The notes: generated by a model from the sequence alone, not told the origin. 23,325 nucleotides of DNA from a virus (IMGVR_UViG_2511231170_000001); one strand, 5' to 3'. Positions 11,484-14,622 are shown, numbered from the stretch's first letter. Translations and numbers: made by a program.

Positions 11484-11690
11484 ATGGCTGAAGAGAAAAA
11501 AGGCGGTGTTTCGGTGTACATAAGCCCCGACATCGTGAAGGCGCTCAAGGAACGCCACCAGCAGAACGTAAAAGCAGGCATTGCGGCAGGACTTGATCCG
11601 CTGGCGATGGTTGAGCCGTCAACAGGCTGGCAGGTACGCTCCTATTTACGCGCGGCGCTGGGCATAAATCAGACTCATGGGGGTGAATAA
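11484..11690 (+). CDS. Hypothetical small protein, first gene of the head module
   Basis: Strong Shine-Dalgarno; stop overlaps the capsid gene start. Confidence 0.5.
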   Translation: MAEEKKGGVSVYISPDIVKALKERHQQNVKAGIAAGLDPLAMVEPSTGWQVRSYLRAALGINQTHGGE

Positions 11691-12745
11691 TGGCAGTCAA
11701 AGCAATGGCACTTAACACACACCAGCTTTTCGCGTACCTGAATCGCGAGGATATTGCGGAATTTAAATTTAGTCCGCTGTTTACCGCGCTGTTTTTCCCG
11801 AACGTGGCGACATTCAACACACAGGACATCATGTTAGATAACCTGGATATTGAAGAAGTCACTATGTCGGCGTTTTGTTCGCCTATGGTTGGTAGCCAGG
11901 TTCAGCGCGATAAAGGGTACGAAACCAGCATTATTCGCCCTGGCTACATGAAGCCAAAACACGAAATCGATCCATTAAAAACAATAATGCGCATGGCTGG
12001 AGAAGATCCGGCACAGCTTAACGACCCTACCTACCGCCGTATGCGCCTGATTACTGGCAACATGCGCCGCCAGATAAACGCCATTAAAGCGCGCGTGGAA
12101 TGGCTGGCGGTGAATGCGATAACGACCGGAAAAAACATCATTGAGGGCGAAGGCATAGAGCGCTATGAAATCGACTGGAAGATACCGGAAAAAAACATCA
12201 TAGAGCAGGCCGACGGTAAAAAATGGTCAGAGCAGGACAAAGACATACACGACCCAATCTATGACATTGAGCTATACGCAGATCAGGCAGGTTGCCCCGC
12301 AAACGTCATGATTATGGGCGTTGATGTATGGCGCATGTTACGCAGCTTTAAAAAATTCCGTGAACTGTACGATCTCTCCCGTGGTTCAGAATCCGCCGCA
12401 GAGCTGGCATGTAAAAACCTGGGCGAAGTGGTGAGCTTTAAAGGCTATCTTGGTGATCTGGCCCTTATCGTCTATTCCGGCAAATACACTGACAGCGACG
12501 GCACAGAAAAATATTTCCTTGATCCTGATTTGCTGGTCCTGGGCAACACCAACAACAAAGGGCTGGTGGCCTATGGTGCGATTATGGATCAGGAAGCGGT
12601 AAGAACAGGCGCAACGCAAAACATGTACTACCCGAAAAACTGGATTGAGGACGGCGATCCGGCGATTGAGTACGTGCAGACGCACAGCGCACCGCAGCCG
12701 GTTCCGGCAGATATTCGCAAATTTGTTACCGTCAAAATTGCTTAA
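11690..12745 (+). CDS. Major capsid protein, lambda gpE family
   Basis: Blocks aligning with recalled lambda gpE: FKFSPLFTALFF, PGYMKPKHEIDP, EDPAQLNDPTYRRMRLI, ALIVYSGKY, LVLGNTNNKGLVAYGAIMD, YYPKNWIEDGDPAIEY. Confidence 0.85.
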   Translation: MAVKAMALNTHQLFAYLNREDIAEFKFSPLFTALFFPNVATFNTQDIMLDNLDIEEVTMSAFCSPMVGSQVQRDKGYETSIIRPGYMKPKHEIDPLKTIMRMAGEDPAQLNDPTYRRMRLITGNMRRQINAIKARVEWLAVNAITTGKNIIEGEGIERYEIDWKIPEKNIIEQADGKKWSEQDKDIHDPIYDIELYADQAGCPANVMIMGVDVWRMLRSFKKFRELYDLSRGSESAAELACKNLGEVVSFKGYLGDLALIVYSGKYTDSDGTEKYFLDPDLLVLGNTNNKGLVAYGAIMDQEAVRTGATQNMYYPKNWIEDGDPAIEYVQTHSAPQPVPADIRKFVTVKIA

Positions 12746-12756
12746 CGGGGGATTCT

Positions 12757-13092
12757 ATGGACACTCCATACATTGAGTTATTTGCAGGCAGTCAGCAGGT
12801 ATCCACGACGCTGGTACATTTTGCCGCTGATGCTGGCGTTATTCAGGAATTTACCCCGCTGATGCTGGCGGACAATGGCGAGTTTAAGCCGTGGGATGGT
12901 CAGGAATCTGGGAAGGCTGTTTATCTGACCTCGTACCCCGTGGACACGTCAAAGCAGAAATCAGCACAGTGTTACAAGACGGGGATATTTAATATCGCCG
13001 CCGTAAACTGGCCTGAGAGCGCCGACACTGACGCGAAAAAATGCGCCGCCTTTGCGGGTTCTGGCGTATCCGTTCAGCCGCTGGCGCGATAA
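12757..13092 (+). CDS. Head decoration protein, lambda gpD-like
   Basis: TPLMLADNGEFKPWDG and CYKTGIFNIAAVNWPESADTDAKKCAAFAGSGVSV align with recalled gpD TPLMLDTSSRKLVAWDG and [36 protein letters not shown]. Confidence 0.75.
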   Translation: MDTPYIELFAGSQQVSTTLVHFAADAGVIQEFTPLMLADNGEFKPWDGQESGKAVYLTSYPVDTSKQKSAQCYKTGIFNIAAVNWPESADTDAKKCAAFAGSGVSVQPLAR

Positions 13093-13104
13093 GCAGGGGA
13101 AACG

Positions 13105-13518
13105 ATGGCAACGAATGAAAGCATCATGGCGCTACCGCTGGCGAGTAAATTTAAAGCAGAAGCGCGGGCAATGGCTGACAGAGGTTTATCAACCTACGAG
13201 GCCGTATATCAACTCAACAAACTGGAAGAGCAGGACAAGCCGCGCGCTGATGCGATTATGGCGCTTCATGAACATAACGACTATCAGCCGCTGTTACGTG
13301 CAATGGCAAACGTGCCATGTATTAGCGTCGATAATGCTCGTGAAATCCTGAACATGACCATAGAGCAGGAGCGCCCGAAGGTTGCGCCGGAGCTTACCGC
13401 AGCCTTTGAAAACTTTATGGACATGCACAGCCCGAAAGCCGTATCACCCGGCATGGCATACGACGGCAGAAACCAGGGCGATGAAGGCGACGTCGATCGC
13501 ATACTGAAAACCATCTGA
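13105..13518 (+). CDS. Hypothetical protein (137 aa) between the decoration gene and cos
   Basis: ORF with Shine-Dalgarno; no family recognised. Confidence 0.5.
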   Translation: MATNESIMALPLASKFKAEARAMADRGLSTYEAVYQLNKLEEQDKPRADAIMALHEHNDYQPLLRAMANVPCISVDNAREILNMTIEQERPKVAPELTAAFENFMDMHSPKAVSPGMAYDGRNQGDEGDVDRILKTI

Positions 13519-13524
13519 CATAAG

Positions 13525-13547
13525 GCCGGAGAAATCCGGCTTTTTTT
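13525..13547 (+). terminator. Rho-independent terminator (GCCGGAGAAATCCGGC + T7)
   Basis: Hairpin then T-run immediately upstream of cos; paralogous to 11085-11106. Confidence 0.6.
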
Positions 13548-13620
13548 ACGGGTCCTTTCCGGCATATGGACCCGTTACGGGGCGGCGACCTTGCGGATTT
13601 TCGCTATTTATGAGCCTTTT
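13541..13620 (+). other. Lambda-type cos site: cosQ-like TTTACGGGTCCTTTCCGG, cosN GTTACG|GGGCGGCGACCT (predicted 12-nt cohesive end 13580-13591) and the adjacent conserved segment
   Basis: Near-identity to the recalled lambda end-joint ...TTTACGGGTCCTTTCCGGTGATCCGACAGGTTACG / GGGCGGCGACCTCGCGGGTTTTCGCTATTTATGAAAATTTTCCGG. Confidence 0.75.
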
Positions 13621-13621
13621 C

Positions 13622-13697
13622 GGGTTGGTGGTGGTGGTTTTGTTTTTCGCTCTATCTCTATGAATAAAAAGGGAAAGATAACACCAACACACCAACC
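13622..13697 (+). promoter_or_regulatory. Candidate cosB-equivalent: GGTTGGTG-type repeats (GGTTGGTGGTGGTGG at 13623-13637, inverse CACCAACACACCAACC at 13682-13697) flanking an AT-rich segment
   Basis: Lies between cosN and the small-terminase start, where lambda has its Nu1-binding R sites, but the motifs are different. Confidence 0.35.
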
Positions 13698-13724
13698 TGA
13701 AACCTTAACTAAGTGGGGATATTG

Positions 13725-14267
13725 ATGAAATCGCACCTGATGAACAAAAAAACTATGGCGCAAAGCTGCCGCGTAAGTGCGACAGCGTTCGACAAGTGGG
13801 GAGTAACTCCCGTTGAGCGTAAAGGCCGTGAGGCGTTTTATGATGTTGCTAGCGTGATAGACAATAGGGTTAACAATGCAATTAACCAGCTTACAAACGA
13901 CAAAGGCGAGATTGATGATGATGAACTTTTACGCGTAAGAATCAGATTGCTGACAGCACAGGCGGAAGCGCAGGAACTTAAAAACGAGCGCGAACGCGGC
14001 GAGGTGATTGATACAAAGTTTTGCATCTACGCGATTTCAAAACTAGCGAGTCAGATTTCATCAATCATGGACAGCCTCCCGCTCACAATGCAAAGGCGCT
14101 TTCCCGATATAAGGCCGTATATGCTGGATGAACTAAAAAGGGAAATAGCCAAAGCATGTAACGCATGTGCAAGACTTGACGAAAACCTGCCACAGATACT
14201 GGCTGATTACCTGATGGAAACTACCGGAAGCGCGCCTGAGAAGTTGCTACAGAACAAAGGCGAGTAA
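13725..14267 (+). CDS. Terminase small subunit, lambda Nu1-like
   Basis: RLLTAQAEAQELKNERERGEVIDTKFCIYAISKLASQISSIMDSLPLTMQRRFPDI aligns with recalled Nu1 RLTRAQADAQELKNARDSAEVVETAFCTFVLSRIAGEIASILDGLPLSVQRRFPEL; start chosen at ATG 13725 after a GGGGA Shine-Dalgarno (alternatives GTG 13713, ATG 13740). Confidence 0.8.
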   Translation: MKSHLMNKKTMAQSCRVSATAFDKWGVTPVERKGREAFYDVASVIDNRVNNAINQLTNDKGEIDDDELLRVRIRLLTAQAEAQELKNERERGEVIDTKFCIYAISKLASQISSIMDSLPLTMQRRFPDIRPYMLDELKREIAKACNACARLDENLPQILADYLMETTGSAPEKLLQNKGE

Positions 14268-14340
14268 CCGCCGCCCCGTAACGGGCCATAATTCCAGGAA
14301 GGACCTGACGACACCAGGCTATCAGAGCGATGGGGGCACA

Positions 14341-14622
14341 ATGACAGAAGCCGAAATACTGCGATTAATCCGCCGCGTTACCGGAATCAGCCAGCAGGCT
14401 GACGAACAGGCCACGCAGCCGGACAGCGTGACCGCTGAAAATTATGTGCGTGTTGTTGCTGAGGTGATGCGCCGTGACGGTATCGAGCTTAACGGCGTGG
14501 ATATGCGCAACATACGCGCCAGAGTTCTGGAGATGTTGTCGTACCGTCGCCGCGTGCAGATGTACCAAGAGAAAGAAAAAATTACTTACCACTGGAAGAA
14601 GCCGGAACGGTTACGACGTTAA
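14341..14622 (+). CDS. Hypothetical protein (93 aa), last ORF of the island
   Basis: ORF only. Confidence 0.4.
   Translation: MTEAEILRLIRRVTGISQQADEQATQPDSVTAENYVRVVAEVMRRDGIELNGVDMRNIRARVLEMLSYRRRVQMYQEKEKITYHWKKPERLRR

Follow-up and report, generated by a model that had tools for sequence, protein, structure and literature searches.

The window analysed here is a 23,325-nt stretch of DNA catalogued as viral (IMGVR_UViG_2511231170_000001). The segment under study, 11484–14622, had been described in an earlier note, made from the sequence alone, as part of a phage-satellite-like island with its own capsid, decoration and small terminase genes. We hold with high confidence that window positions 4538–15179 are the catalogued element EcCIDi14, which belongs to the EcCICFT073 family of classical Gram-negative phage-inducible chromosomal islands (PICIs), and that 11484–14622 is its late packaging and morphogenesis module. 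This confidence applies to the explanation as a whole, including the packaging mechanism proposed below. EcCIDi14 and its family are already known, and the capsid, decoration and small terminase (TerS) genes are standard for this satellite family. The additions made here are small, and none is a new system: the Nu3 homology of a 137-aa protein, the correspondence of cosB with the TerS/Rpp slot, the frequencies among genomes, the loss of a second cos site (cos2), and the purifying selection on the capsid genes.

Identity and boundaries of the island

The genome of E. coli clone D i14 (NC_017652.1 = CP002212) matched the window at 100%. Table S1 of Fillol-Salom et al. 2018 ISME J (PMC6092414) lists EcCIDI14 at CP002212 249047–259688, with a size of 10.6 kb, the attachment site (att) CGGTGTAGTTAATGGTGTAGTTAATT, and a location inside an IS110 transposase gene. 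Because these coordinates map onto window 4538–15179 and the published att is the repeat found here, the island is the catalogued PICI. The IS110 transposase gene is named as the EcCIDi14 site in PMC10111431 too. Strain, coordinates, size, att and IS110 site all agree between the window and the entry in PMC6092414, which is a catalogue line without functional work. The boundaries are as follows:

4538–4563, + strand: attL, 26-bp direct repeat CGGTGTAGTTAATGGTGTAGTTAATT, exact copy of 15154–15179 and equal to the published EcCIDi14 att
15154–15179, + strand: attR, 26-bp direct repeat, exact copy of 4538–4563

The number of exact 26-bp repeat pairs expected by chance was 0. The island spans 10,642 bp including both repeats, slightly less than the 10.8 kb or so first estimated. 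Its description as an integrase-bounded satellite island stood, with an integrase gene at the left end and the exact att repeats at both. The 26-bp att core is in turn made up of a tandem duplication of GGTGTAGTTAAT.

Gene content and PICI membership

Outside the module, the genes that place the island among PICIs are:

4585–5814, + strand: tyrosine integrase (Pfam Arm-DNA-bind_3 and Phage_integrase; RefSeq annotation)
6182–6370, + strand: AlpA-family regulator (Pfam Phage_AlpA, E=2.7e-18)
8781–10196, + strand: replication protein, RepA-type helicase (Pfam AAA_25, E=3e-44; phrog_2850 and primase/helicase PHROGs)
10646–11068, + strand: single-strand DNA-binding protein (Pfam SSB, E=4.9e-15)

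SatelliteFinder recognises five core PICI components (PMC10085698): an integrase, an AlpA/MerR/Stl regulator, a primase-replicase, a capsid morphogenesis gene and a small terminase. All five were found in EcCIDi14. The island also has the layout of a classical PICI, with the integrase end and att repeats at an IS110 site, AlpA and a unidirectional gene order, its own replication module, a capsid component and a small terminase. AlpA is the activator of Gram-negative PICIs (PMC6092414). In the RefSeq annotation, the + strand carries all annotated island genes but one, a ylcI-like gene. The earlier note had claimed that this gene set matched none of the satellite families it considered (P4-like, Rpp-type PICI and capsid-forming PICI). 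This did not hold: the island is EcCIDi14, EcCICFT073 has the same module, and capsid and TerS genes are among the SatelliteFinder core components.

The reported absence of large terminase (TerL), portal and protease genes was borne out. The lambda proteins A (TerL), B (portal), C (protease), W, FI and FII gave no tblastn match in the whole window, and the gaps left unassigned in the island, of about 760, 415 and 560 bp, could not hold TerL/portal/protease-type genes. Membership of the capsid-forming PICIs (cf-PICIs) was rejected on the same two results. A P4-like satellite was also rejected, since Psu, Delta, Sid, Ash/epsilon and the alpha primase-helicase were not found in Pfam/PHROG scans of the island open reading frames (ORFs) tested. 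For tail and lysis genes, the search covered the RefSeq annotation and Pfam scans of the island ORFs, and none was found in either; the tblastn queries were the six lambda proteins named above. The Rfam search of the island gave zero RNA family matches, and the sites from the promoter and terminator scans were no more numerous than in shuffled sequence. Between alpA and the ylcI-like gene, approximately 760 bp (6371–7129) are without an annotated gene. An ORF at 6423–7613 (+ strand, 396 aa) has a low-complexity translation and runs in antisense to the ylcI-like gene; it seems to be a chance ORF.

The cos site and its small terminase

The six ORFs of 11484–14622, all on the + strand, were found at the positions that the earlier note had given them. 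The packaging half of the module consists of:

13525–13547, + strand: terminator-like hairpin GCCGG-AGAAAT-CCGGC followed by T7, read from the sequence; it ends the capsid operon and abuts cosQ
13545–13625, + strand: lambda-type cosQ-cosN block (67/81 identity to lambda), with the cosQ-like TTTACGGGTCCTTTCCGG and the cosN GGGCGGCGACCT
13618–13702, + strand: candidate island-specific cosB, a 13-nt inverted repeat TTTCGGGTTGGTG / CACCAACCTGAAA with arms at 13618–13630 and 13690–13702 and 59 nt between them
13725–14267, + strand: small terminase (TerS), Nu1 family, 180 aa (Pfam Phage_Nu1, E=1.3e-23), or 184 aa with the alternative GTG start at 13713
14341–14622, + strand: 93-aa conserved protein, phrog_1561 (unknown function), in all sister islands

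A lambda-type cos site had been called here, and the cosN proved identical to that of lambda at all 12 bases (13580–13591, between the 137-aa and TerS genes). The hairpin at 13525–13547 is kept in EcCICFT073 and in the O157 PICI. CosQ and cosN are conserved among the island, the sister PICIs, lambda and the lambdoid prophage in the same genome (hereafter the resident prophage), and the similarity to lambda is lost past 13625. In lambda, the large terminase makes use of cosQ and cosN. The region from cosN to the TerS start is unrelated to lambda, to the resident prophage and to EcCICFT073, and is common to the TerS-type O157 PICI. Its 13-nt inverted repeat is a candidate pair of TerS binding sites, with arms comparable to the lambda R sites. 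The candidate cosB varies with the gene in the slot behind it, being the same in the other TerS-type island compared and different in the Rpp-type island. A phage-type cosQ/cosN with a PICI-specific cosB is also stated for EcCICFT073 in the Fig. S5 legend of the 2018 paper (PMC6092414). This combination is one mark of the Rpp-type cos PICIs (Fillol-Salom 2019), and EcCIDi14 appears to have it.

The other mark of that group, an Rpp protein, is missing from EcCIDi14, whose slot holds a full-length TerS. With RppA as the query, tblastn gave no credible match in the window, and BLASTP of TerS against RppA gave no alignment. RppA consists of a winged helix-turn-helix (wHTH) domain only. It is a truncated TerS-like protein that heterodimerises with the phage TerS, which it must borrow (Fillol-Salom 2019).

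The TerS aligned end to end with lambda Nu1 at 37% identity, in agreement with its first reading as a Nu1-like protein. The identity was lowest in the wHTH DNA-binding domain (26%, residues 1–68) and higher in the assembly region (51%, residues 100–140) and the gpA-binding region (44%, residues 141–181), so that the C-terminal region is indeed kept, as had been noted. In lambda Nu1, this C-terminal half is the part that binds TerL (gpA) (PMC6739421). The closest phage relative of the TerS among 50,697 phage records was N15 gp1 (47.6%). Four islands were compared for the ratio of nonsynonymous to synonymous substitution rates (dN/dS). The ratio was 0.12–0.17 for the TerS gene and 0.12–0.34 for the 93-aa gene. 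The 93-aa protein had zero matches in Pfam, NCBIfam, PADLOC and PDB sequence searches.

A megablast search of 5426 complete E. coli genomes found the EcCIDi14-type TerS gene in 732 and RppA in 97. The TerS type, and with it the predicted TerS packaging route of E. coli cos PICIs, is about 7 times commoner in these genomes than the well-studied RppA route. The N-terminus of RppA is 30% identical to the wHTH domain of Nu1, and Rpp has been suggested to have evolved from TerS (Fillol-Salom 2019). The comparison suggests that the commoner TerS-type islands represent an older state than the RppA islands.

Two further cos-like copies were located in the island:

14268–14313, − strand: cos2 remnant, a second inverted cos with the cosQ side and 8/12 cosN bases kept
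11085–11151, + strand: degenerate third cos-like copy just after ssb, with a hairpin and T-run, an exact TTACGGGTCCT at 11105–11115 and a 7/12 cosN match (GGGCGGGAGGCG)

An intact inverted cosN lies between the TerS/Rpp gene and the 93-aa gene in EcCICFT073 and in the O157 and ATCC 25922 PICIs, where EcCIDi14 has a gap of approximately 190 bp. EcCIDi14 has lost the second cos site. Deletion of cos2 in EcCICFT073 increased transfer, and by analogy its loss in EcCIDi14 may be neutral or beneficial. The copy at 11085–11151 aligns with the main cos region and was found in the ATCC 25922 PICI too.

Proposed packaging route

The simplest model would be a cos-phage analogue of the TerS strategy of the SaPIs, the pathogenicity islands of Staphylococcus aureus, in which an island TerS, an island cosB and a helper TerL act together. 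A lambdoid helper would turn on AlpA, and the island would excise with its integrase and att sites and replicate with RepA and SSB; this step is taken from the work on EcCICFT073. The diverged N-terminal wHTH of the island TerS may then bind the island-specific cosB (the candidate repeat at 13618–13702), downstream of the phage-type cosQ/cosN. The conserved C-terminal half of TerS would recruit the gpA-type large terminase of the helper, by which cosN would be nicked and island concatemers brought into helper heads and tails. The last two steps are read from the sequence. The host genome contains a 100% identical copy of the terminase region of phage 4, a proven EcCICFT073 helper, and this prophage is a candidate resident helper.

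Several points weigh against this explanation. Helper-dependent induction, packaging and high-frequency transfer have been demonstrated for EcCICFT073 only (PMC6092414), and EcCIDi14 itself is known from its sequence and the catalogue line alone. The TerS-type islands EcCIIHE3034 and EcCI18098 gave at most 110 transductants/ml from their native strains (PMC6092414). The cosB assignment draws on a single 13-nt inverted repeat, and no integration host factor (IHF) consensus was found between its arms. EcCIDi14 is nested in insertion sequence (IS) elements and has lost cos2, and its mobility could for these reasons be lower than that of related islands.

The capsid operon

The morphogenesis half of the module contains four genes:

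11484–11690, + strand: 68-aa protein, phrog_3255 (unknown function), with a TAATG overlap with the start of the capsid gene
11690–12745, + strand: major capsid protein, lambda gpE family, full length (Pfam Phage_cap_E, E=4.9e-50, profile positions 15–328/329)
12757–13092, + strand: head decoration protein, lambda gpD family (Pfam HDPD, E=1e-17)
13105–13518, + strand: 137-aa protein, equal to c1501 of EcCICFT073, with homology to the C-terminal half of the lambda-type Nu3 scaffold and the gpC C-terminus

The gpE-family and gpD-like calls of the earlier note were upheld by these Pfam matches and by direct comparison with lambda. The capsid protein was 43% identical to lambda gpE (residues 16–341 of 341) and 45% identical to gpE of the resident prophage, and the closest phage capsid in the phage records had 47.6% identity. 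The decoration protein was 37% identical to lambda gpD and 43% identical to another gpD homologue. The 68-aa gene appears to be translationally coupled to the capsid gene through the TAATG overlap. Its product had zero matches in Pfam, NCBIfam, PDB sequence searches and PADLOC.

Each of the four islands compared has intact copies of the capsid, decoration and 137-aa genes, and the capsid-module genes are under purifying selection. The dN/dS ratio was 0.12–0.16 for the capsid gene, 0.03–0.30 for the decoration gene and 0.23–0.63 for the 137-aa gene; the 68-aa gene is weakly constrained (0.43–0.76). Among the reference Gram-negative PICIs, a capsid gene is reported for 21 of 29. The capsid operon was found by megablast in 627 of the 5426 complete E. 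coli genomes, so that about 12% of them carry a constrained capsid, decoration and scaffold-like operon without a known phenotype.

The 137-aa gene had been put forward as a candidate for a scaffold function, and the profile comparison favoured this. In hhalign, the 137-aa family matched Nu3-like proteins with 95.8% probability (E=7e-9). The gpC of the resident prophage consists of an S49 protease followed by a Nu3 region, and its residues 416–493 were 36% identical to residues 49–131 of the 137-aa protein (BLASTP, E=7e-10; Smith-Waterman z=12.3 with 1000 shuffles). The match was missed by the local tblastn database and reproduced by blastp, and the miss was treated as a technical glitch. The matched segment is one copy of the repeated motif IMxxxEAxGxE...PGMTVExAR with the terminal FExFMxxHSP tail. 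The head-maturation-protease family phrog_53 matched the 137-aa protein through its C-terminus only (1.5e-9). Since direct BLASTP of the protein against lambda gpC/Nu3 was not significant, the Nu3 link goes through the resident prophage gpC and the profile comparisons.

The 137-aa family is narrow. An exhaustive HMMER search of 1.84 billion representatives gave only 8 matches, the most distant of which, P0041, is a stand-alone Nu3-like scaffold. Zero matches to the protein were obtained in Pfam, NCBIfam, PADLOC and PDB sequence searches. Its AlphaFold model is all-helical and of low confidence (mean pLDDT 63.7). Some NCBI records name the family "phage head-tail connector protein"; this name had no Pfam or NCBIfam support and is probably wrong, and the Nu3 homology is preferred. 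With a Nu3-like 137-aa protein, the operon encodes a coat, a cement and a truncated scaffold-like protein.

What the capsid operon may do

The capsid, decoration, Nu3-like and 68-aa genes are an accessory operon common in the EcCICFT073 family. Our best guess, offered tentatively, is that the operon co-assembles with the portal and protease of a helper and alters or supplies shells with helpers beyond those tried. The published evidence comes from EcCICFT073, in which c1499 encodes the capsid protein and c1500 the decoration protein. Deletion of c1499 or c1500 left transfer and interference with lambda unchanged, and replacement of c1499 by cat gave higher transfer (PMC6092414). The EcCICFT073 DNA packaged with lambda was phage-sized (PMC6092414), and reviews describe its packaging into normal-size capsids. 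These results, which are those of a sister island, argue against the island building capsids from its own coat. No work on the function of classical-PICI capsid genes was found among the papers of 2022–2026 available to the search.

A satellite that builds or fills capsids from its own coat protein, as the earlier note suggested, would be a new type, intermediate between a classical PICI and a cf-PICI. Its coat, decoration and scaffold would be its own, and only the portal, protease, TerL and tails would come from a lambdoid helper. We consider this unlikely. The capsid protein is full length, the module is intact and constrained across the four islands and widespread in complete E. coli genomes, and through the Nu3 homology of the 137-aa protein it encodes coat, cement and scaffold-like protein together. 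However, the gene set is the standard EcCICFT073-type module of a catalogued island, and the unchanged transfer of the deletion mutants, the higher transfer with c1499::cat, the phage-sized DNA and the normal-size capsids all speak against it. The published negative tests used islands marked inside the module: c1501::tetA lies within the 137-aa gene, and c1499::cat replaces the coat gene (PMC6092414). The sole lambda-lysogen donor listed there for EcCICFT073 is c1499::cat. As far as the text of that paper goes, the capsid size with an intact operon may never have been assayed for EcCICFT073; this should be read as a caveat rather than as an established flaw. Operon-disrupting markers, and the fact that only three helpers were tried, could account for the absence of a phenotype in the published work. 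There is some chance, albeit a small one, that the operon works as a partial capsid kit, in which its own coat, cement and mini-scaffold assemble on a helper portal and protease into satellite-specific, possibly smaller shells when the right helper is present. If this is true, the islands are a functional intermediate between classical PICIs and cf-PICIs.

The module could also be an interference or defence device, in which a dominant-negative coat or a scaffold decoy poisons or resizes the heads of the helper or of a competitor, as SaPIbov5 Ccm and SaPI1 CpmB do; we think this improbable. The C-terminus of SaPI1 CpmB is common to the scaffold of its helper 80alpha, and the 137-aa protein resembles CpmB in this respect. 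The purifying selection implies a function, and a Ccm-like role was considered by the authors of the 2018 study (PMC6092414). However, deletion of c1499 or c1500 did not restore lambda plaquing on EcCICFT073 cells, the interference maps to RppA, and zero PADLOC defence models matched.

It is very improbable that the region is what remains of a decayed head-gene cluster from an ordinary lambdoid prophage. The genes are indeed members of lambda head and terminase families, and the cos is of lambda type, but the order E-D-Nu3C-cos-Nu1 is permuted relative to the phage order cos-Nu1-A-W-B-C/Nu3-D-E, the capsid and TerS are at most 48% identical to any homologue in the phage records while the capsid is 93–97% identical among PICIs at four att sites, the island carries integrase, AlpA and replication genes as well as exact att repeats, and all ORFs are intact. 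A defective lambdoid prophage was ruled out by the permuted order and this low identity to phage proteins. The island proteins are only 35–45% identical to those of the resident prophage.

The Nu3 homology, the variation of cosB with the slot, and the published marker insertions inside the operon provide handles on the capsid operon and on the predicted TerS route.

Genomic setting

The island is nested at three levels. The PICI lies within the transposase gene of ISEc45/IS110, this IS splits an IS66 tnpC, and all of them lie within a CP4-like island near tRNA-Asp/dnaQ. The segments of the nesting are window 1845–3249, 3503–4423, 4538–15179, 15237–15485 and 15546–15734. As the att is inside an IS, every copy of the IS, plasmid copies included, is a potential landing site.

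A CbtA/YeeU (CbeA) type IV toxin-antitoxin pair is located downstream of the island (16949–18236). Its neighbours are a frameshifted DUF5983 gene, DUF987, a JAB/RadC-like gene and an antirestriction gene, which are typical cargo of CP4-44-type islands.

Comparison with known systems

The module order 68aa-capsid-decoration-137aa-cos-[slot]-93aa is common to EcCICFT073, the O157 PICI, the ATCC 25922 PICI and EcCIIHE3034. The closest described system is the prototype EcCICFT073, an Rpp-type cos PICI. Its identity to EcCIDi14 is 94% for the 68-aa protein, 95% for the capsid (c1499), 97% for the decoration protein (c1500), 90% for the 137-aa protein (c1501) and 86% for the 93-aa protein, and the cosQ/cosN of the two islands are near-identical. 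EcCICFT073 differs in having the 144-aa RppA (c1503) in the slot after cos, where EcCIDi14 has a full-length TerS, as well as another cosB, a perC gene and two cos sites.

The TerS-type PICIs EcCIIHE3034, EcCI18098, EcCIATCC25922 and the O157:H7 island are alike in the slot as well. Where compared, their TerS was 86–87% and their capsid 93–97% identical to those of EcCIDi14, and for EcCIIHE3034 and EcCI18098 the presence of a TerS gene is stated in the 2018 paper (PMC6092414). These islands occupy other sites, namely roxA(ycfD)-phoQ in O157:H7, tRNA-Pro in ATCC 25922 and cspD-clpS in IHE3034. They have other integrases and att sites than EcCIDi14, and some have a primase-type replication gene and not a RepA-type one.

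The cf-PICI EcCIEDL933 (Alqurainy et al.) has an int-alpA-rep front end with its own capsid protein and TerS, as EcCIDi14 does. The cf-PICIs additionally encode a protease, a portal, head-tail connectors, an HNH protein and TerL and build their own small capsids, whereas none of these genes is present in EcCIDi14. HE-PICI 11capE (Williams lab, 2023), also a Gram-negative PICI, resembles EcCIDi14 in its cos packaging and in having a gpE-family capsid gene of its own, but it integrates within the capsid gene of a helper prophage and is without terS. SaPIbov5 Ccm and SaPI1 CpmB, which are satellite homologues of a helper capsid or scaffold protein, offer a functional analogy to the capsid and 137-aa genes, although the sequences are unrelated. 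Ccm and CpmB demonstrably redirect capsid size, whereas their E. coli counterparts are known without a phenotype.

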